DNA from: a virus
Virus genome (UHGV): UHGV-0237147
Length of the DNA: 14,066 bases
Strand: one strand, 5' to 3'
Shown: in pieces, positions 4,222 through 12,653 of the stretch
How positions within the stretch are numbered: the stretch's first letter is position 1
Layout: each line of letters starts with the position of its first letter
Position numbers and translations under genes: made by a program
The notes under the pieces: model-generated
Databases searched by the model: none
The model's input: only the letters and a program-made list of their open reading frames with translations
Told to the model about the DNA's origin: nothing

Positions 4222-4800
4222 CTAAGCGGTAGCGACTACAACCTTACTCAGGAAACCATCATTACTAAGAAGAATGGCTTTCTCGAACTGTTTTGCTTTA
4301 AACCACTGCAAATATTTTGTTGCCGTTGAGTTGGCAACACTAAACACTTTTCCGATGAGCATAAAGCTCAACACAACAGGTGCAATGTAAAGCAGGAATG
4401 GTAGATTGTTTGCCACCAGAGCCTTATCCATTACTTTTACTGACTCAGACACAGCCTGAAGCAATTCTTCATTTTCACATGCAAACAGCACCTTGGCATG
4501 TTTGTTAACTCTTTCTTTGATTTCAGGGTTTCGAGCAAAGTTGATTTCCGCTCTGATCTTGTTACCAATTGTTAACAGGTGAAGTCTGTTGATCGTGTTG
4601 TTTAAGCCGTCGTGGATAAGAACAGCTGCTTTCATGTCCTTAGGGCTAAGATTGCCTGAAATAATTTCATTTCGAACTTTATCACGAATTTCGAAGAGCT
4701 CATTCCTAAAAGAAAGCCTCAATGATGGCTGCAAAATCCTTTCGTAAATGAAATGAAATGCAGCAAAAGCACATAGCGTGAAAAACAACGCAGTGATCAT
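4222..4800 (-). CDS. Membrane-anchored protein of unknown function (192 aa), second gene of the accessory (moron) module between Q and the lysis genes
   Basis: ATG 4800 with strong RBS GGAGGA at 6 nt spacing; N-terminal TM (ITALFFTLCAFAAFHFI), soluble central domain, second hydrophobic segment near the C-terminus (LPFLLYIAPVVLSFMLIGKVF); region appears AT-rich relative to flanking genes. Confidence 0.7.
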   Translation of the reverse strand: MITALFFTLCAFAAFHFIYERILQPSLRLSFRNELFEIRDKVRNEIISGNLSPKDMKAAVLIHDGLNNTINRLHLLTIGNKIRAEINFARNPEIKERVNKHAKVLFACENEELLQAVSESVKVMDKALVANNLPFLLYIAPVVLSFMLIGKVFSVANSTATKYLQWFKAKQFEKAILLSNDGFLSKVVVATA

Positions 4801-4825
4801 GGTGCATCCTCCAATTTAATTGTTG

Positions 4826-5206
4826 TTACTGGTCACTCGTCCCGAGTGGCTGTGACGTTTTTTGTTGCTGCAGAGTTGTCTTCTCTTTTCCTATGCGTTC
4901 AGCCTCGCTGCTGAAATCCTTACGCATAATCCTAGCATGACCTGCCCATGCGATAAGTGCAAGTACAAAGAATATCCAACCAAGCATGTTCCAGTTTAGA
5001 AGAGATACCAGGATATCGTGAATAACGTCTGGAATTTTCTCATTTGGTACACGAGTAAGCAAGATAACGAGCACTACAAAGACACATAAAGGCAACATCT
5101 GCCCTGTAGACATAGCTCTGTTGACAATATCCCTGGTTGCATGCGCCCAAGTGATCTTTGTGATACTGCTTGGCTTGCCGCCAGTTCTCTTATGATTGCC
5201 ACTCAT
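4826..5206 (-). CDS. Small two-TM membrane protein of unknown function (127 aa from ATG 5206; ORF could start at TTG 5251), first gene of the accessory module
   Basis: Two hydrophobic segments (MLPLCVFVVLVILL, MLGWIFFVLALIAWAG); no clear SD upstream of either start, so the start is uncertain; AT-rich context. Confidence 0.55.
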   Translation of the reverse strand: MSGNHKRTGGKPSSITKITWAHATRDIVNRAMSTGQMLPLCVFVVLVILLTRVPNEKIPDVIHDILVSLLNWNMLGWIFFVLALIAWAGHARIMRKDFSSEAERIGKEKTTLQQQKTSQPLGTSDQ

Positions 5207-5324
5207 ATTGTTAGTTATAGTCACGTTTTGAAGGGTAATTAATCTTATCAAAATGTGATGATTAAATTCAAAGATTTACATCAATAAAATCTAGTTGCGG
5301 CAATAGGTTATAATTTAAAAGGAA

Positions 5325-5346
5325 AAACCCGCACGATGGCGGGTTT
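5325..5346 (-). terminator. Hairpin terminator about 50 nt downstream of the Q-like gene (bidirectional; candidate tR-prime-like terminator)
   Basis: Stem AAACCCGC (5325-5332) / GCGGGTTT (5339-5346), loop ACGATG; T-run follows on the plus strand (CTTTTTGTT) and a U-rich tract follows on the minus-strand RNA as well. Confidence 0.6.
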
Positions 5347-5396
5347 CTTTTTGTTCTGTTGCTCAGTTCGCTTTAACGTCCCGAGCTTAACACAAT
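5347..5396 (-). promoter_or_regulatory. Candidate late-promoter / antiterminator-loading region between the Q-like gene and the hairpin terminator
   Basis: Positional inference only (in lambdoid phages the late promoter and qut site lie just downstream of Q, before tR-prime); no convincing -35/-10 hexamers identified by eye. Confidence 0.25.
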
Positions 5397-5975
5397 TTAA
5401 GCACTTCCCGCGCAACTATTCAAGTAGAATCTGTCGCTATTTGTGCCGAATGCGTCACACATTGGCTTGTATAGCATCGATTCTGCTACATTTAGCCAAA
5501 CATCAATTCGACTTTCACAGGTTCGCAAACACCATTCAGGATGTTTTGCATTTAAGTCTCTGGCCATCGCCTTTTTGCTCAGGCGCTTGATATATCGATC
5601 TTCAATAAGAGCGTATAACTTCTTATGCCCTGACTGCACAAGGATACCGCTGAGTACAGCGTTGATGGCCAGCGCTTCTTCATCGGTACAGAACGCCAGA
5701 CCGCTTTTATTCTTCCCTTCCAGAATCTCTTTGAGGAACGCTTCCAGTTCGGGTTTGCTGATACCCGCTTTCTTCATCCGGCGTAGCGCTTCGTTGATTG
5801 CCGTTTTGGTGATTTTTCCGGATGTCAGTAGCTGGTTAAACATGTTCCCACCACTACCGCCGCCGATATAAGACCAGCGGCCCCACATGCGCAACTTACC
5901 CTGTATCCAGATGCTTTCCAGAGTACGAAGACGAACCATTTCACCAGCCTTGCCAACTTCAGAAGGATTAATCAT
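5397..5975 (-). CDS. Putative late-gene antitermination protein (Q-like), 192 aa
   Basis: Sits directly upstream of the terminator and lysis region; RBS GGAGAAAG; N-terminal motif LRMWGRWS resembles the conserved RWGxW motif I recall in phage-82/DLP12-type Q proteins; the rest of the protein is not confidently matched. Confidence 0.5.
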   Translation of the reverse strand: MINPSEVGKAGEMVRLRTLESIWIQGKLRMWGRWSYIGGGSGGNMFNQLLTSGKITKTAINEALRRMKKAGISKPELEAFLKEILEGKNKSGLAFCTDEEALAINAVLSGILVQSGHKKLYALIEDRYIKRLSKKAMARDLNAKHPEWCLRTCESRIDVWLNVAESMLYKPMCDAFGTNSDRFYLNSCAGSA

Positions 5976-5989
5976 TAAACTTTCTCCAT

Positions 5990-7039
5990 TTATGCCAGCA
6001 CGCCAATTGCCAGCGCTCGATCTATAACCCGAAAAACTAGGACCAGTTGGTCATCGTATTTCGCTTCAAATGCCACGGGATCAGCATGCAACTCGTTGTG
6101 ATGTGCTCTGCACAGCGGTATCACAAACAGGTCGTGTGCTTTTGTACCCATTCCACCCTGCCCGTGGCCAATCAGGTGGTGGGGGTCGTCTGCGGGTTTA
6201 TTGCAACAAACACAGGGTTGTGTTTTAACCCAGCGGGTGTACGTCTCATTTATCCAGCGGCGACGTTTTGGCCTGAGCATGAAAGACTCCGGAGACTCCG
6301 GATCGACGGTTAACGTCAGTATTGGCTTTTGGGTTTCCACATCCAGGCTGTCTGACCGCCGAGCTGGTAACGTTTCAATCGGCCTGACTTTTTCCTGCAT
6401 AATGCTGGTGGCCGGCGGCATAGGTACGATGTCACTTTCCCGGTAAACAGATAATAATGGTTCGTCTGGCAGCCGTAGTGCCCGCTGCGCCATTCCTTCG
6501 GTGACAGCATCAGCGACACCAGATTGAACCGCCCACCAGCAAAGTTCGGCTAAAGAGAGGGAGCGCTCTTTGTTGTAGCCAAGCCCAGCCAGTACGGTAT
6601 CAATAATCCATTCGGCAACATTGTTCAGCGCAAGCGCCTGCAATCTTTCCGTTGTCTGCCCGCGCAATTTGTTATCGCAGTGCCAGCACACCACCAACGC
6701 GCCAGGCGGATGCCATAGTGTCGTTAGCTCGGCATGATGGTAATCAGAAAAAGGGTACTGACACTTTTTAATGCGCTGACGAAGCCAGAACTCAAGCCCG
6801 GACATACCACCAGCAGCAGTAATGACCCGTTCATCGGTAAAGAAAGTGTGAAGGCTGGGATCCTCCAGTAGCGGTTGCTGTGCATCGGGGATCCGACCAG
6901 ACGGAAGCCGGGCCATGTTTTCTGGCTCCCGTTCAACCAGCACGCGACCTGATGCAAACAGGGGCATTAACTCCCGTCCTGGCTTGAACAGCACCACGCC
7001 AAGGCGTGGCACCATTTCAGGGGTAAGTAAGGCTCTCAA
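5990..7039 (-). CDS. DUF968-like prophage protein with a C-terminal HNH-type Cys/His motif (349 aa, TTG start; alternative ATG at 7015); resembles E. coli Qin prophage YdfU
   Basis: C-terminal CVCCNKPADDPHHLIGHGQGGMGTKAHDLFVIPLCRAHHNELH is an HNH-like metal-binding motif; size and position next to the Q-like gene match the YdfU family as I recall it; RBS AAGGGG upstream of TTG 7039. Confidence 0.6.
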   Translation of the reverse strand: MRALLTPEMVPRLGVVLFKPGRELMPLFASGRVLVEREPENMARLPSGRIPDAQQPLLEDPSLHTFFTDERVITAAGGMSGLEFWLRQRIKKCQYPFSDYHHAELTTLWHPPGALVVCWHCDNKLRGQTTERLQALALNNVAEWIIDTVLAGLGYNKERSLSLAELCWWAVQSGVADAVTEGMAQRALRLPDEPLLSVYRESDIVPMPPATSIMQEKVRPIETLPARRSDSLDVETQKPILTLTVDPESPESFMLRPKRRRWINETYTRWVKTQPCVCCNKPADDPHHLIGHGQGGMGTKAHDLFVIPLCRAHHNELHADPVAFEAKYDDQLVLVFRVIDRALAIGVLA

Positions 7040-7049
7040 TGCCCACCCC

Positions 7050-7571
7050 TTATACCGTCAGATCTTTAAATTTCTGTACGGCCTTCCCCATGTCCGCCAT
7101 AGCATCCACAAACTCATCAAACTTACGGCTTGCCATTCCATAAGCCTGGAGGATTTCAAGCTTCAGAGGATCGAGTTGCTTTTTTATTTCAGCGCGGTCA
7201 CCTGCCTTTTTTTCAGCTTCTTCAGCGGCACGAATGAGGGCTTCAGCCTGCTTGCGTAATTCTTCAGGGGTCACGGTTGGCTTATTCAAAGTGGCTTCCT
7301 TCAATGTCTTCGACGACGCAATAACCGGCGCCACGGATTTATGACCAAACTTAGGGTGATGCAGGGTTGTTGTCCTGCCGTCATCAGTAATGCAGAGCAG
7401 GCTGTTTTCGCGGATGATATCGATCAGGTTTTCTTTATCCTTCCGGCTCAACGAGCTATATGCTGATACTTTGTGCGTCAGATGGGTGAGCGTTGCCCCA
7501 TCAGGTTGTTTTTCAACAAACCGTTTAACCCTGGACAATACAGGCTGAAGGTGCGGAGGGGTCACTCTCAC
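7050..7571 (-). CDS. Hypothetical phage protein (173 aa, GTG start overlapping the upstream stop)
   Basis: Long ORF translationally coupled to the Ant gene (GTGA overlap); C-terminal half Lys/Glu/Ala-rich and predicted helical. No family recognised. Confidence 0.5.
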   Translation of the reverse strand: MRVTPPHLQPVLSRVKRFVEKQPDGATLTHLTHKVSAYSSLSRKDKENLIDIIRENSLLCITDDGRTTTLHHPKFGHKSVAPVIASSKTLKEATLNKPTVTPEELRKQAEALIRAAEEAEKKAGDRAEIKKQLDPLKLEILQAYGMASRKFDEFVDAMADMGKAVQKFKDLTV

Positions 7572-8389
7572 TGGAGACCCCCTGCTAAATCTTTATCGTG
7601 GGTAAAACTACCGTTCCAGGTGACCTTCATCGGAAGCTTCCCCTTCAGGTAGTTTTTGTACAGCCAGACAGCGCCTTCACGTAGCAGGACGGGCTGGTAG
7701 GTAGTAAAGCTCACCGCAGAGTTTGGCGATACTTTACTGCTTTTCTCGGTGAGGTATTTGTCGCGGGCATACGAACGAACACGCCACTGTGCACTGCGGC
7801 CTTCGGGATTGTCGTCGTACAGCCAGTTAGCAGAGACAAGCCAGGCACTGATCTTGGAGGTATTCACACCATTCAAACGCTTACAGAACTGTACAGGGGA
7901 AAGCCCGTCAGTGAAGAGACTCTCGAGATGCTCGATATATTCGGCCTGCTGGTGGGTAACTGTTTCCGCGCGCTGCCTGGCTTCAAATTCATCAGCCCAT
8001 GCTCTCGCAGCCTGTGCCGGATCAGAGAAATTTGGTAATGATGGTGTACCAACTCGCATTTTCGCTTGTTGTTCGCATGTGATGAAATAACGGCGAACCT
8101 GACGACCCTTCTCGTTTCTCTCCACCATCGCCAGTTCTTTACCCATATCAATGGTGATCAGGTAATCAACGGTTGGGCGTCCACCGAGGGGGTTCTCGCC
8201 AGAATTGGCGTAAACCACATAATCAGTATTTTCAGCAAAACCATACTGACTGATACGCCCTTTAATCCAGTTGGTGAAATCACGCCCAACGCCGAGAAAG
8301 GCATGTAACCTTTTAGCGCTGACCATCGGGGTTATGTGGTTGCCAATATTGCCCTGAGTGATCGGGATGATCTGATGTAGCTGACTCAT
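7568..8389 (-). CDS. Phage antirepressor (AntA/AntB N-terminal domain family), 273 aa
   Basis: N-terminal region SAKRLHAFLGVGRDFTNWIKGRISQYGFAENTDYVV ... DYLITIDMGKELAMVERNEKGRQVRRYFITCE matches the conserved antirepressor N-domain pattern; RBS GGGGAGG; ATGA overlap with the upstream gene. Confidence 0.75.
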   Translation of the reverse strand: MSQLHQIIPITQGNIGNHITPMVSAKRLHAFLGVGRDFTNWIKGRISQYGFAENTDYVVYANSGENPLGGRPTVDYLITIDMGKELAMVERNEKGRQVRRYFITCEQQAKMRVGTPSLPNFSDPAQAARAWADEFEARQRAETVTHQQAEYIEHLESLFTDGLSPVQFCKRLNGVNTSKISAWLVSANWLYDDNPEGRSAQWRVRSYARDKYLTEKSSKVSPNSAVSFTTYQPVLLREGAVWLYKNYLKGKLPMKVTWNGSFTHDKDLAGGLQ

Positions 8390-8757
8390 CTTGCCTCCCC
8401 GTTGCGCAGATCGCTGATAAAAGGGAGATTGCTCAGAACGCGAACATAAAAGTCAGGGCTCAACCAGAGGGCATAGGCAAAAACCAACTCCTGAGAGGCG
8501 AAAGTACCCTGTAAGACTCCACCGCGAATAACATGCAACTTTTCCCAACGTTCACCAGGGAGAGCATTTAGAATTCTTTTTGCAGTTAGCGTCCTGAGAT
8601 AAAACGCAGGTTTTTTGGACGCAGACCCACCTGAAGCCTTATGAATATCATTGAGACTATAAAGATTTGGTTCGAATGAGTTGATTAAACATCCATCAAC
8701 AACAAGATAAGAGTCTTTTTTGGGCGTAGCAGTGCCCATAACATGATGATTGCTCAT
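8386..8757 (-). CDS. KilA-N domain protein (123 aa from ATG 8757; the ORF extends upstream to 8862 but that part overlaps rusA and looks non-coding)
   Basis: Motifs YSLNDIHKASGG, PAFYLRT and GTFASQELVFAYALWLSPDFYVRV are characteristic of the KilA-N DNA-binding domain; RBS GGAGAG upstream of ATG 8757. Confidence 0.7.
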   Translation of the reverse strand: MSNHHVMGTATPKKDSYLVVDGCLINSFEPNLYSLNDIHKASGGSASKKPAFYLRTLTAKRILNALPGERWEKLHVIRGGVLQGTFASQELVFAYALWLSPDFYVRVLSNLPFISDLRNGEAR

Positions 8758-8843
8758 ATTCTCTCCATACTCTGATTGTTGCGAAGGGCCTGCACGCCCT
8801 TTTCGCTTGCACTTTCCGACATTACTGCCATAACGACCAATAT

Positions 8844-9242
8844 TCAACCCACAGCTGGACATATAACCACCTCTTTTTTATATGCCGTTATGGTTATCTC
8901 AACTTTTCCCTTCGGTACTATCGGTCCCCATTCCACCAGCATGCGCTTAATCTGGCTGTCGTCTTCCCAGACACCCGCATGCGTCAGCGCGTCAAACAGG
9001 GCTTTGTTGTAATTATCGATATCCCGGCGGCGCGCATCCGGCGGGTACAGAGTGATTTCTACCGCTGCCAGTTCAGTCGATGGCTTCGGGAGACGTCGTA
9101 ATTGCTCAATGATCGCCACGCAGGCAGCGCTCTGGTATTTACGGCCATCAGCGCTAATGAGGTGACGACCGGCCAGCGGCCCCTTGTTAGGGGAGCGCCA
9201 GTAAGTGTTCACGCTCGGAGGAAAAGGCAGGATCAATTTCAC
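8844..9242 (-). CDS. rusA: Holliday-junction resolvase RusA (crossover junction endodeoxyribonuclease), 132 aa, GTG start
   Basis: N-terminus MKLILPFPPSVNTYW and the acidic motif RRRDIDNYNKALFDALTHAGVWEDDSQI match the RusA family; GTGA overlap with the methyltransferase stop; RBS GGGGAGAGG. Confidence 0.85.
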   Translation of the reverse strand: MKLILPFPPSVNTYWRSPNKGPLAGRHLISADGRKYQSAACVAIIEQLRRLPKPSTELAAVEITLYPPDARRRDIDNYNKALFDALTHAGVWEDDSQIKRMLVEWGPIVPKGKVEITITAYKKEVVICPAVG

Positions 9243-10558
9243 GCGGCCTCTCCCCGCATATTGCGAACAAGTTCAGAAGCGGCAGTAATGATTTCGCTGG
9301 TGGCCGTTCGTTCCAGCCAGAGTTGATTGATGTTGGCTTTCAGCTTGTTCTGCTGTGAATCATCCAGCATGTCAGCGCCATCCACCTGATCGAATACAAT
9401 TCCAACCTCCAGCGGCCAGATACGGGACTCGGGAAGCGGATCCGCTACTGGTTTAGCTTTCTCACGGATGTGCATGCGGATCTGGCGAATATTGGACCAA
9501 CTGGAAACATCCAGGCTTCCCATAGCTGCAATGAAATCAGTACTGTTCATGCCATATTCACCAGATGCTTCAAGGGCAACAGTCCGAATACGTTCCGACA
9601 TATCCAGGTGCGCAGCAGCGTCATCGAATTCAATCGACAACAGCCACTCATCCACACCGAACAAAATACTCTCACGAATAAGCAGCTTCGCTTTGTCGAT
9701 CGTTAATGGTGATACCTGAGTGAATTCCGGTGCTTCGACAGAATCCGCCGCCCAGGTATGCCCAAACTTCGATTCACTGAATGTGTATTCTTCTTTATCG
9801 CCGAACGCAGCTCTAACGCATGCCCACGCCTCTACACCGCTGACATCAAAAATATCTTTCTGGGTGAGTGGCAACTCTACTTCTGGCTTGTCAGCTACAG
9901 ATGGTGTGGCAGTTGCAGGTTGAGACTTGCTGACAGCAAATTGCGCCAAAGTCATAAACGCCTGCCCTTTTGCCTCCAGTTCTGTACGGTTGATATAGCT
10001 GAACCGCTCACCACGCCATGACTTATCGAATACAGCTATGGCACCGGCAAAAAACGCGCTGGTGGGCTTCTGTTTTTCGTCAGCAGGTACAAACCACACA
10101 GGCAGATCGAACCCAATGCGCCCGCGAATGAATACAATGTGATCGGCATCTTCCGGCCACCACGTTTCACTCGGCGCGGCTTTTATCAGGAATACATAGC
10201 GACCGCCCTTTTCGCGCTGGGCTGCTGCGTACTTCATGATGTGCGTCATACCAGTGATCGCCTGATTCTCGTGGTACTGCGAACGGCTATACGGTGGGTT
10301 GCCATAACCTGCACCACCTAGTTCTGCCAGACGTTCAGACCAATCCTGGGTCAGCGCGTTATCTTCGGCGGTGTACCATGCCGGGCATTTCGCGTTGTCG
10401 TCGTCAGCAAACAAGTCCAGAACTAATGGGCCAAATAACGCGTTGATCCCCCAGAAAAGCAGATCAGGTGTCCTCCACTGATCTCCAACTTCTTTCAATT
10501 CGTGAGCTGGTTTACTGCGCAGTTCAGCCAGCGCCTGGCAATACTTATTTGGCATCAT
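9239..10558 (-). CDS. Phage Dam-family DNA N6-adenine methyltransferase fused to an acidic C-terminal domain of about 240 aa of unknown function (439 aa total)
   Basis: N-terminal roughly 190 aa carry WRTPDLLFWGINALFGPLVLDLFADDDN and the NPPY catalytic motif (GNPPYSRS) typical of phage Dam methyltransferases; the remainder (after a Pro/Ala/Thr linker QPATATPSVADKPEVELPL) is acidic and unrecognised. ATGA overlap with the upstream replication-gene stop. Confidence 0.75.
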   Translation of the reverse strand: MMPNKYCQALAELRSKPAHELKEVGDQWRTPDLLFWGINALFGPLVLDLFADDDNAKCPAWYTAEDNALTQDWSERLAELGGAGYGNPPYSRSQYHENQAITGMTHIMKYAAAQREKGGRYVFLIKAAPSETWWPEDADHIVFIRGRIGFDLPVWFVPADEKQKPTSAFFAGAIAVFDKSWRGERFSYINRTELEAKGQAFMTLAQFAVSKSQPATATPSVADKPEVELPLTQKDIFDVSGVEAWACVRAAFGDKEEYTFSESKFGHTWAADSVEAPEFTQVSPLTIDKAKLLIRESILFGVDEWLLSIEFDDAAAHLDMSERIRTVALEASGEYGMNSTDFIAAMGSLDVSSWSNIRQIRMHIREKAKPVADPLPESRIWPLEVGIVFDQVDGADMLDDSQQNKLKANINQLWLERTATSEIITAASELVRNMRGEAA

Positions 10559-11421
10559 GAGCGGAACCCCGAATTTTCTGGCAGTGAATAGTCAACATTT
10601 TGGAAGTTTGCGCGGCTGGCTGAGTTAGTCGCCCATTTACCGTTAACGCGTTCAGGTCGCCCAGCGGCAGACCATTTGGTCGCGCTTTGCAGGTAACCGG
10701 GGAAGTTTTTTGGAATAAACAGAGTTGCCGGGCGGAGGTATTGAGCCTGCTCGCTATCACGCCAATCAGCGTTTTTGTAATCCACCACAAGGCACAGATC
10801 ATCAACAGTGAACTGTTCCCGCAGACGGGCGCGAATGTTCTCCAGCGACGTGCTGCATACCTGGTAGCGTGAACCAGTTGTCTGGTTCAGGTAAGACAAA
10901 ACCTGTCTGGCCTGATCAGTAATCACAACCTCAGGGTCGGGTTGCGCCGCAACCGGACAAGAGGGTTTTGAAGTTACTTGTGGATCTTGTTTTGATTTTA
11001 CTGACGGATCCCCGCCAGATTCTGACGGGTCAAAACCTCCGTTTTTGCCAGATTTCGACGGGTCAGTTTTTGAGGCGTCAAATTTTGATGCGTCAGATTT
11101 TGACGTGTCAGAATCTGACAGTTGAGAAAATGCGGCAGCCTGAAGTTTCGCCACATTCAGTCGGTACACGTTCGACGCATTACGGTTACCATTACGGCGC
11201 TGTGTACGCGTGAGCCAGCCATCTTTTTCAAGCTTTGCGATTGCCGTTCTGATAGTGCTCGGCCCAGCGCCAAGCTGGCGAGCAATAGTTTCAATAGACG
11301 GCCAGCACACGCCCTCATCGCTGCTGAAATCAGCAAGGCGAGCCATGATCGCGACACTAGACAACTTCATGCCCGACGCCGCGCAACCATCCCATACGTA
11401 GCCGGTTAATTTAGTGCTCAT
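10555..11421 (-). CDS. Replication initiation protein (lambda O-like: N-terminal HTH DNA-binding domain, low-complexity Ser/Lys/Asp linker, conserved phage C-terminal replication domain), 288 aa
   Basis: N-terminal winged-helix-like region (ETIARQLGAGPSTIRTAIAKLEKDGWL); C-terminal region (QARQVLSYLNQTTGSRYQ ... DYKNADWRDSEQAQYLRPATLF) resembles the conserved phage replication C-terminal domain (TIGR02220-like, from memory); iterons lie inside the gene as for lambda ori. Confidence 0.7.
   Translation of the reverse strand: MSTKLTGYVWDGCAASGMKLSSVAIMARLADFSSDEGVCWPSIETIARQLGAGPSTIRTAIAKLEKDGWLTRTQRRNGNRNASNVYRLNVAKLQAAAFSQLSDSDTSKSDASKFDASKTDPSKSGKNGGFDPSESGGDPSVKSKQDPQVTSKPSCPVAAQPDPEVVITDQARQVLSYLNQTTGSRYQVCSTSLENIRARLREQFTVDDLCLVVDYKNADWRDSEQAQYLRPATLFIPKNFPGYLQSATKWSAAGRPERVNGKWATNSASRANFQNVDYSLPENSGFRS
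11002..11111. repeat. Iteron array (candidate origin of replication): imperfect repeats with palindromic cores TGAyGnGTCA at 11023-11032, 11056-11065, 11071-11080, 11087-11096, 11101-11110, and a partial copy at 11002-11011
   Basis: Read directly from the sequence: tgacgggtca, cgacgggtca, tgaggcgtca, tgatgcgtca, tgacgtgtca, each flanked by a short T/A run; located inside the replication gene where they encode the SK[ST]D low-complexity linker. Confidence 0.7.
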
Positions 11422-11677
11422 GATCGTCCGTTATCTCCCTGAACTTTTGCCTGAATTGCTCAAGTGGGCTGAAGCATTCGTGCAGGTAGCCATCACGCAG
11501 ATAGATAACGCGCTGTGTTTCTGGCTCCCAGCGGATAACACGGACTGGCACTCCACGGTGGTCTTTGAACCTTCGGTTAAGTTCGCGCACAGGCGTTTTG
11601 CCCTCCGGTTGTAGACCCCCACAATTGAAACCGCCCTACTGTGGTTACACGGAACCCAGCGGTTTGATAATCTGCGT

Positions 11678-11836
11678 TCATACCGAAACAACGGAGTACC
11701 CGAAACCGGGATCATCCTGAGTTGCGGTAGACGGTTAAAAGCCGTTAAACTGCTCATGCGGATTATTTCTCCATACTCGAAGAGTTGTTCGCCAAGTCGC
11801 CCGGAGCTGCACACTCGCGGGCGTCACTCTTTTCTG
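11678..11836 (+). ncRNA. Candidate OOP-like antisense RNA (plus-strand transcript antisense to the 3' end of the CII-like gene)
   Basis: Sigma-70-like promoter GTTACA (11644-11649) - 16 bp - GATAAT (11666-11671) on the plus strand; intrinsic terminator at 11797-11836 inside the 3' end of the minus-strand CII-like gene; no convincing plus-strand ORF with an RBS in between. Inference by analogy to lambda OOP. Confidence 0.3.
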
Positions 11837-12314
11837 CGACACAAAAAACTCGATAAAGAAGCGCTACGTGCTCCTGGAACTTCGCGATAACCTGATAGCT
11901 GTTTTCCTCAATCTGAGCGCGCTCATCTGCGTCAATTACCCCATCAGCCGTGGCTTTACGTACAAAATTAGAATGACGGCCTATCCATTCGATGGACTCC
12001 ATCAGGCGCTGGTTGATATCGGCGTTATCCAGATCATCAACATCTGCCAGCGGTACAAATACGCCCTGAGAATGGCGCGCAACGGCATCAGCTATATGAG
12101 TTGAACCACCAGCACGTTGTAAAACCATTGCCCAGCCCAGTGGGAAGATCTGGTCGCCGTCAACACGAAGGCGGTTAAACAATGCGTTCTCTGTCACACC
12201 CAACCATTCCGCCGCCTCAGCATATCCACCAGGCAGATCGGTAATCGTTTTTTTAATCGCTACCACCAGCCAGGAAGGCTGACGCTCGACTTTCCAAATA
12301 GGTTCGTTACCCAC
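11763..12314 (-). CDS. CII-like early regulator (YdaT-family HTH protein), 183 aa, GTG start
   Basis: Occupies the cII position directly downstream of the Cro-like gene (8-nt overlap); HTH-like segment GGYAEAAEWLGVTENALFNRL; RBS GGGAGGAG upstream of GTG 12314; family assignment from memory of YdaS/YdaT pairs. Confidence 0.5.
   Translation of the reverse strand: MGNEPIWKVERQPSWLVVAIKKTITDLPGGYAEAAEWLGVTENALFNRLRVDGDQIFPLGWAMVLQRAGGSTHIADAVARHSQGVFVPLADVDDLDNADINQRLMESIEWIGRHSNFVRKATADGVIDADERAQIEENSYQVIAKFQEHVALLYRVFCVAEKSDARECAAPGDLANNSSSMEK
11797..11836 (+). terminator. Plus-strand rho-independent terminator embedded in the 3' end of the minus-strand CII-like gene
   Basis: GC-rich stem CGCCCG (11798-11803) / CGGGCG (11818-11823), extendable with one bulge, followed by TCACTCTTTTCTG; no T-run on the opposite strand. 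Confidence 0.45.
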
Positions 12315-12552
12315 GGCTCCTCCCTTCTTCCTGTGGTTTGAGTTTTACTGAAGCTTCGCTACGCTTTTCGTAAAGGTCGGGATGGAAAACCAATTTCCCC
12401 CCAGTCCGATAGGCTGCTTCTGCTGCACGTCCTTTCGGGATTAGGCGACCAGTTCTATTACGCCACTGGTAAACGGCCTCGCTTGTGATTCCAAAAAATT
12501 CGGCAACTTTCTCAGTACTGCCGAAGTAGTTTTCAATATCATCGGTTGTCAT
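12307..12552 (-). CDS. Cro-like repressor (YdaS family HTH protein), 81 aa
   Basis: Divergent from the CI-like gene; RBS AGGAGG 4-5 nt upstream of ATG 12552; motif VAEFFGITSEAVYQWRNR ... FHPDLY matches the YdaS-type Cro-like family as I recall it. Confidence 0.7.
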   Translation of the reverse strand: MTTDDIENYFGSTEKVAEFFGITSEAVYQWRNRTGRLIPKGRAAEAAYRTGGKLVFHPDLYEKRSEASVKLKPQEEGRSRG

Positions 12553-12653
12553 AACGCCTCCTTAGCTAAGTTTGATTAGATATTAATAACCAATCTAACT
12601 TTGGTCAATAAAAACTAAGATTGCTTAGCCTTTTAATTTTTTATGGTGTTCAA
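12553..12653. promoter_or_regulatory. Divergent promoter/operator region between the Cro-like and CI-like genes
   Basis: Perfect palindrome CTTAGCTAAG (12561-12570); inverted repeat CTAAG-attg-CTTAG (12615-12628); inverted repeat TTAGAT (12575-12580) ... ATCTAA (12593-12598); AT-rich 101-bp spacer between divergent start codons. Confidence 0.6.

Follow-up and report, generated by a model that had tools for sequence, protein, structure and literature searches.

A Dam-family methyltransferase of a lambdoid prophage with a predicted two-module tail shared among phage DNA-modification genes

The virus genome UHGV-0237147 was analysed as one stretch of 14,066 nucleotides (hereafter, the window) with a focus on the gene at positions 9239-10558, which encodes a phage Dam-family N6-adenine DNA methyltransferase of 439 amino acid residues (aa) with a long acidic C-terminal tail. 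The gene lies on the minus strand, a point that the first-pass annotation of this DNA did not state. There, the tail had been described as a single large domain; instead, the C-terminal 230 residues comprise two mobile modules, here denoted B and C. Structure prediction and the natural layouts of homologous proteins support the view that these are independently folding, separable units strung on flexible linkers like beads on a string. Sequence comparison identifies module C as a fused copy of a small-protein family of ~85 aa and as the conserved companion of a C5-cytosine methyltransferase (C5-MTase) cassette, to which it is genetically coupled across Enterobacterales, and module B as an optional tail domain for the proteins encoded in one variable slot of the prophage. 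We give an even chance to the explanation that the gene belongs to a package in which an early orphan methyltransferase is combined with non-catalytic adaptor modules B and C.

The open reading frame (ORF) and its parts, with the predicted local distance difference test scores (pLDDT) of the AlphaFold2 models, are the following.

9239..10558, minus strand: ORF for Dam, linker 1, B, linker 2 and C (Dam-B-C); ATG at 10558, TGA at 9239-9241, 439 aa, 0 internal stops
9932..10558, minus strand: N6-adenine DNA methyltransferase domain, residues 1-209, with PF05869 and TIGR01712 matches
10403..10423, minus strand: VLDLFAD, residues 46-52, kept in homologue alignment A1
10289..10300, minus strand: NPPY, catalytic motif IV, residues 87-90, kept in homologue alignment A1
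9875..9931, minus strand: linker 1, residues 210-228 (SKSQPATATPSVADKPEVE), rich in Pro, Ala and Thr; pLDDT below 50 in both models, length and sequence variable among homologues
9458..9874, minus strand: module B, residues 229-367, helical; pLDDT 85-93, conserved WAC and ESKF(G/A)HTWAADS motifs (alignment A6)
9431..9457, minus strand: linker 2, residues 368-376 (AKPVADPLP); pLDDT below 50 at residues 372-378
9242..9430, minus strand: module C, residues 377-439, a three-helix unit; pLDDT 87-92

The gene is an intact prophage gene of the PF05869 methyltransferase family. Its ORF is uninterrupted; the prophage of Escherichia coli Nissle 1917 carries a 439-aa coding sequence (WP_001704140.1, 95% identical at the DNA level, annotated as 'phage N-6-adenine-methyltransferase'), and among 5,426 complete E. 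coli genomes the gene was found in 25; the IMG/VR prophage contig UViG_2663762979_000002 (L151) shares 99.99% identity with the window over 9.6 kb (positions 4449-14066); and collinear homologues of 439-448 aa occur in many genomes. Hence the ORF is not a frameshift fusion, and the earlier caveat that two genes might be hidden in it behind an undetected frameshift or stop does not hold. Split versions do exist in the databases, as would be expected if two genes had been joined by a sequencing error or if the gene were a pseudogene: locus L010 has separate ORFs of 90 and 336 aa, and the protein P0015 resembles a standalone B+C. The split in L010 is, however, specific to that genome, and P0015 owes its appearance to a run of N, so that, given the full-length homologues, the chance of an annotation artefact is negligible. 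The L010 locus (4884-6204) belongs to a prophage of Citrobacter murliniae strain 24249 that is 95% identical to the window over 6.2 kb, and its Dam-B-C gene probably suffered a frameshift or is a pseudogene. As to P0015 (L147 3135-4501), a standalone B+C protein was considered and rejected, the run of N in a metagenome scaffold interrupting a normal Dam-B-C gene.

As proposed in the first-pass annotation on the strength of the NPPY motif, the N-terminal part is a Dam-family enzyme: Pfam Dam (PF05869) matches residues 19-200 with an E-value of 8.9e-44 and 149.6 bits (cutoff 28.1), and the NCBIfam equivalog TIGR01712, 'phage N-6-adenine-methyltransferase', matches residues 16-197 with 206.9 bits (cutoff 97.05). 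The VLDLFAD segment presumably corresponds to the motif I region that binds S-adenosylmethionine. Judged by these profiles, nothing sets the catalytic domain apart from the rest of the family; it is in architecture, and not in the catalytic domain, that the protein departs from the norm, with 439 aa against the ~170-220 aa of single-domain PF05869/TIGR01712 proteins. The description of what follows the Pro/Ala/Thr linker as acidic and unassigned also stands, as residues 200-439 have an isoelectric point (pI) of 4.53 and a net charge of -17, and residues 210-439 are matched by no Pfam or NCBIfam model.

The modularity of the tail is most evident from the five natural layouts found in alignment A1. 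Dam alone is a 217-aa protein of phage PhiR29_2, Stx2 and other E. coli phages, 76-77% identical to the window protein over residues 1-202; Dam+C, of ~292 aa, abounds in Citrobacter, Salmonella and E. coli; Dam+B+C spans 399-448 aa; Dam+B (397 aa) is found in Atlantibacter; and one layout joins Dam to a part of B and to C (414 aa). The expectation that orphan phage methyltransferases are usually single-domain falls short for this family: in Enterobacterales prophages, Dam+C (~292 aa) and Dam+B+C (~440 aa) are common. The removal of B can be precise: locus L011 lacks exactly the counterpart of window nucleotides 9431-9952, i.e. linker 1, B and linker 2, while the flanks are 87-94% identical. 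In an AlphaFold2 model of residues 216-439 (mean pLDDT 81, predicted template modelling score, pTM, 0.43) and in one of the full-length protein (pTM 0.35), the tail is predicted to be all-helical except for two very short strands in B; in the full-length model, too, B (85-93) and C (87-92) stand out as confident units, and both linkers stay under a pLDDT of 50. Since the pTM is just 0.35-0.43, no fixed packing is predicted. The Dam domain itself was poorly modelled in the full-length prediction (pLDDT ~45), the alignment being shallow. Each module has a pI of 4.3-5.0 and a net charge of -6, and the invariant residues of both are mostly hydrophobic or structural.

Module C proved to be widespread. 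An exhaustive phmmer search with residues 225-439 against 1.84 billion representative sequences returned only 41 clusters, some of which are small proteins that correspond to C alone, and a profile search with C returned 1,051 clusters, headed by 'hypothetical proteins' 85 aa long from Citrobacter, Salmonella, E. coli and their relatives. The family pattern W..E..Q..L..IN..L.E..I..A..L is present in the window copy (invariant columns in alignment A3), and residues 373-439 match PHROG 16025 (E-value 6e-13) and PHROG 111 (E-value 4.5e-22). The PADLOC model PDLC03332 also includes module C. The possibility, raised earlier, of a known standard extension of this methyltransferase family is thereby half confirmed: C is recurrent and contained in PHROG 111 and PDLC03332, but it comes without a documented function.

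The gene that most often follows C encodes a C5-MTase (PF00145, 575-763 aa). Its start abuts or overlaps the stop of C in 47 of 55 species-representative genomes with C, all of which belong to Enterobacterales except for one metagenome-assembled genome (MAG) labelled Geobacteraceae. The locus in that MAG (L020) is a typical enterobacterial lambdoid Dam-B-C + C5-MTase locus, and the bin is probably contaminated or mis-assigned. On its N-terminal side, C can have no partner or just a short peptide, a window-type Dam, a second Dam type (31% identical), an MT-A70 domain (PF05063) or a Methyltransf_25-like domain; in one viral contig, a ParB-like+C fusion is followed by the C5-MTase gene. Approached from the other side, C is located directly upstream of the C5-MTase in 80 of 80 mutually related viral contigs that carry close relatives of that enzyme. 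The isolated coliphage Eeyore (L146) has, in order, the initiator, Dam-B-C (444 aa; 4314-5648) and the C5-MTase (645 aa), and in P0012 (405 aa) a natural in-frame deletion has fused Dam and a part of B to the C5-MTase C-terminal motifs IX-X (…GNAVPPP…). Among the 55 loci, an intact C without the C5-MTase is seen only as a Dam fusion (L010, L011, L018, L019 and L025); in L039, L045 and L064, the gene of the C5-MTase has either decayed or escaped detection. This linkage, the strongest lead of the analysis, could not have been foreseen from the window because the C5-MTase gene is absent there: RusA directly follows Dam-B-C at the position where relatives (L008/L009, L146) carry the C5-MTase gene. 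The C-coupled C5-MTases (L008 4875-6809, L006 4402-6483, L043 6111-8384 and relatives) are themselves unusually long, with a length that varies between 575 and 763 aa; the PF00145 motifs occupy the two ends only, with ~450 unassigned residues between them, and the protein may be a multi-specific or elaborated enzyme.

Module B is matched by no PHROG, Pfam or NCBIfam model. Its presence in just 4 of 50,697 GenBank phage records gave the impression that B is very rare, which was overturned by its detection in 416 IMG/VR contigs; a word-indexed protein search with B alone, performed with a limited tool, yielded at least 9 matches. Nearly all of the 80 closest of the 416 contigs have the Dam+B+C layout, and the gene after 73 full-length viral ORFs encodes a C5-MTase (36 cases), RusA (23), a LexA-like protein (1) or another or unclassified product (13). 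B is found, too, at the C-terminal end of ParB-like proteins (a ParB N-terminal part plus HTH_ParB; PHROG 1033) that are encoded in the same place, between the initiator and RusA genes. Members of this family usually have 273-282 aa; of 80 that were sampled, about 20 end in B, which follows a flexible linker and is 33-40% identical to the window B. Since B is found on both Dam and ParB-like occupants, the slot between initiator and RusA is a variable DNA-modification slot with B as an optional tail of its occupants. P0128 consists of B alone. A divergent branch comprises P0147 (469 aa) and P0150 (333 aa; L150 4001-5002), with tandem 'SEPxLxx' repeat linkers and with the N-terminal part of B joined to a different, possibly duplicated helical region; the gene of P0150 comes directly after a DUF4406 (nucleoside deoxyribosyltransferase-like) gene. 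In Pantoea phage AH07 (gp48-gp49; L145 4125-6199), the ParB-B protein is directly followed by a TGT/DpdA-like gene (PHROG 887). A pair of DpdA and the ParB-like DpdB inserts 7-deazaguanine into DNA (PMC10164549), and the AH07 pair could be a phage 7-deazaguanine DNA-modification pair of the DpdB/DpdA type in the Dam slot.

Both modules are maintained by selection. Comparison of the window gene with the Nissle gene, neither of which is accompanied by a C5-MTase gene, gave ratios of nonsynonymous to synonymous substitution rates (dN/dS) of 0.07 for Dam (residues 1-215) and 0.14 for C; within B, the ratio was 0.26 at residues 231-283 (with four substitutions only) and 0.12 at residues 284-372. 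Among 69 unique Dam-B-C genes, the median pairwise dN/dS was 0.139 for B and 0.119 for C where RusA comes next (23 unique genes, without the C5-MTase) and 0.127 for B and 0.137 for C where the C5-MTase comes next. These ratios show B and C to be under purifying selection whichever gene follows.

Attempts to assign a known identity to the tail gave little. The analysis of its structure and domains delivered two confident helical units and no informative fold match: the full protein had no match in the PDB in sequence and profile searches, C alone retrieved nothing meaningful from the PDB, and the models of B and C had no informative match among solved or viral structures. A borderline match of B to HisE (E-value 0.02) suggested an NTP pyrophosphatase of the HisE/MazG kind, which was rejected as the acidic metal-binding motif is not conserved. 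A Cys-His-Asp triad in B (C247, H268, D273) was likewise dismissed, the Cys being replaced in the P0147/P0150 branch and placed mid-helix in the model. Neither a controller (C) protein of restriction-modification systems nor another helix-turn-helix regulator fits, with no helix-turn-helix family of Pfam or NCBIfam on residues 210-439 and a pI of 4.3-5.0; nor does a DNA mimic of the anti-restriction type (Ocr, ArdA, Arn), with no fold similarity and a modest net charge per module. Because family and fold matches are lacking, the parts are acidic and single-domain homologues of 217 aa exist, B and C are probably non-catalytic and unlikely to be a target-recognition domain (TRD).

The neighbouring genes place the methyltransferase in an early operon. 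The window spans the part of a lambdoid prophage that holds its immunity, early-right and lysis genes, with these landmarks around the methyltransferase gene.

12621-13280, plus strand: cI-like repressor, the sole plus-strand gene of the window
12307-12552, minus strand: Cro
11763-12314, minus strand: CII
10555..11421, minus strand: replication initiator (HTH_36 + Phg_2220_C), upstream of Dam; its stop overlaps the Dam start (ATGA)
8844..9242, minus strand: RusA resolvase, downstream of Dam; its GTG start overlaps the Dam stop (GTGA)

The translational coupling to the initiator gene that had been noted at first sight is borne out by the ATGA overlap, and the Dam-RusA junction turns out to overlap in a similar way. 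After RusA, the minus strand continues with KilA-N, AntA and DUF968 genes, followed by genes for a Q-like antiterminator, for holins and for an endolysin. No helicase-loader-like gene separates Dam from the Phg_2220_C initiator in the window, and a PerC/YfdN-like gene of 143-151 aa that relatives (L003, L004, L147) possess is absent from this position. A LexA_DNA_bind-like gene of 106-108 aa (PHROG 362) often stands between the methyltransferase gene(s) and RusA (L004/L005 6188-6508, L001 3154-3480, L013, L025); it is absent from the window, and in longest-ORF calls for L013 and L025 it appears joined to RusA. Derivation of the tail from the LexA-like 108-aa or the YfdN/PerC-like gene that flanks Dam in relatives was considered and rejected, no homology being found.

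The target of the enzyme may be GATC or another sequence, with GATC suggested by family precedent: M.EcoVT2Dam, the Dam of VT2-Sakai, is reported to methylate GATC (PMC6602927). The window Dam is 40% identical to this characterised enzyme over merely 77 residues, so its specificity cannot be transferred. The 77%-identical Dam of Stx2 phages was at one point taken for M.EcoVT2Dam; this was rejected, since the VT2-Sakai Dam is the product of a 175-aa gene with the low identity just quoted. The window contains 51 GATC sites where 47±6 are expected, a count that is uninformative on specificity. Two further comparisons were discarded: M.EcoGII is a class beta enzyme (PMC7544214), and the published alignment of Hia5/Hin1523 groups them with M1.DpnII and EcoKDam; no link to the PF05869 enzyme of the window was found for either.

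Within the proposed package, the orphan N6-adenine methyltransferase of the lambdoid prophage would be expressed early, from one operon between the initiator and RusA, so that its Dam domain would methylate the phage DNA as it replicates. In its ~85-aa form, C is normally encoded directly ahead of the large C5-MTase and translationally coupled to it. Module C may be an accessory or docking module that binds the C5-MTase, or else some partner that phage methyltransferases have in common; as a fusion, it might tether the upstream enzyme to the C5-MTase or to that shared partner. Module B may serve protein-protein interaction or oligomerisation. Both would be mobile helical units, passed from one phage DNA-modification gene to another. 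In the window, C is present, and still conserved, without its usual C5-MTase neighbour. Several considerations weigh against this adaptor scheme. Docking to the C5-MTase is probably not the only role of C, because purifying selection on C is equal where that enzyme is missing; as C without the C5-MTase is seen only on Dam, a role related to Dam is possible. The adjacency of C and C5-MTase could reflect co-inheritance of a cassette, and the 80 viral contigs are not independent of each other. The dN/dS pairs are not independent either, and recombination between prophages could blur the selection signal. Finally, given the poor model of the Dam domain, contacts of the tail with the catalytic domain may exist.

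A different use of the same modules would be anti-defence: B and/or C could inhibit or decoy host restriction, for instance the modification-dependent (Type IV) nucleases that attack phage DNA containing N6-methyladenine or C5-methylcytosine. The travel of the modules with phage methyltransferases would follow from such a function, and the acidic helical units, their patchy, cassette-like presence, the other contents of the slot (Dam, C5-MTase, ParB-like plus TGT/DpdA-like genes), the near-constant position of C fused to or beside a methyltransferase in the 55 loci and the selection on C where the C5-MTase is gone and Dam is kept are all in line with it. Yet there is no similarity to solved or viral structures, no known anti-restriction protein stood out among the matches, the net charge of -6 per module is modest, and no contextual link to any particular defence system was seen; we consider this explanation unlikely, if worth keeping in mind. 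Slightly less probable still is its bolder form, that C and/or B represent a previously unrecognised phage counter-defence domain directed against Type IV restriction or against some other system that senses methylated DNA; if true, it would explain why phage DNA-modification enzymes from no fewer than five unrelated families have the modules beside them as small proteins or attached as fusions. The modules might also be evolutionary passengers, with C as the remnant of a Dam-C + C5-MTase cassette that lost the C5-MTase and B as a neutral cassette spread by recombination. The absence of the C5-MTase gene from the window and its retention in close relatives, as well as the dispensability of B between near-identical prophages, fit this explanation, which is nevertheless doubtful: the dN/dS values of ~0.12-0.14 for B and C in the 23 genes without the C5-MTase equal those of the C5-MTase-linked group, and hardly any locus has a damaged module.

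Two functions that the first-pass annotation had suggested for the tail fare worse. Tethering to the replisome, with the tail docking the methyltransferase to the phage initiator or to replication proteins of the host for methylation of the nascent DNA, is improbable, and an essential role of this kind is unlikely in view of the presence or absence of B between otherwise near-identical prophages. Even less probable is that the tail is a TRD or another DNA-binding extension that alters the specificity or processivity of Dam. With motif I ahead of motif IV, the topology would allow a TRD at the C-terminus, and the restriction of intact C without the C5-MTase to Dam fusions agrees with it; but both modules of the tail are acidic, with a pI of 4.3-5.0 each, disordered linkers set them off, the Dam domain has 77%-identical homologues that consist of this one domain, B is also carried by ParB-like proteins, and C is mostly a standalone 85-aa protein.

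The whole architecture is already present in RefSeq, where it is annotated as a plain methyltransferase, and it recurs in prophages. The two-module tail, the tight linkage of C to the C5-MTase and the sharing of B with ParB-like proteins appear to be undescribed: a literature search found no paper on any of the three. The usual view of orphan methyltransferases in phages is that of simple anti-restriction enzymes with a single domain, and modules B and C add to that view, as two structurally orphan modules that recur in hundreds of Enterobacterales prophages, including that of the probiotic E. coli Nissle 1917, and on unrelated proteins: two Dam types, MT-A70, another methyltransferase-like domain and ParB-like proteins. 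The pattern points to an accessory factor for phage DNA modification, be it the adaptor of a two-enzyme complex or a companion counter-defence function. Definitions of domain families for B and C would also mend misannotations such as 'phosphoadenosine phosphosulfate reductase'. This label is attached to the Dam-B-C proteins of phages Eeyore and Flotzy and to the Dam genes of several Salmonella and Proteus phages through PHROG 33262, whose profile matches the Dam domain at positions 284-491 of 495, and it looks like a carry-over from fusion proteins of the reductase with Dam.

Among known systems, the phage enzymes of PF05869/TIGR01712, such as VT2-Sakai Dam (M.EcoVT2Dam), HP1 Dam and T1 Dam, resemble the window protein in the N-terminal 200 residues, in NPPY and in their location in the lambdoid early or nin region, but they are single-domain proteins of 175-217 aa, and the window protein has a further 230 residues. 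The ~292-aa Dam+C methyltransferases of Citrobacter, Salmonella and E. coli share both Dam and C with it, to the extent that P0021 and P0026 end identically (...TATSEIITAASELVRNMRGEAA); they lack B and are mostly followed by a 644-aa C5-MTase, whereas the window has B and no C5-MTase. The standalone ~85-aa proteins (PHROG 16025) are homologous to residues 377-439, with the same invariant W, Q, IN, I, A and L and the same position relative to the C5-MTase gene, yet they are products of separate genes and have a short N-terminal helix, while the window C is fused to Dam-B and its C5-MTase is missing. Dmt of phage P1 combines an adenine and a cytosine methyltransferase in one polypeptide, its Dam part being of a different family. 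The pairing of adenine and C5-cytosine methylation in one expression unit is also seen in the Dam-(B)-C + C5-MTase relatives of the window gene, e.g. in Eeyore; in Dmt, however, the catalytic domains are covalently fused, whereas in the Eeyore-type relatives they are encoded by separate genes, with no more than a putative adaptor to link them, and the window is without the C5 gene altogether. The ParB-like proteins (PHROG 1033, including gp48 of Pantoea phage AH07) occupy the same prophage slot, and about a quarter of the sampled members share the C-terminal B, behind an N-terminal ParB/HTH_ParB part in place of the methyltransferase; together with its TGT/DpdA-like neighbour, the ParB-B protein of AH07 recalls the DpdA-DpdB pair (PMC10164549).

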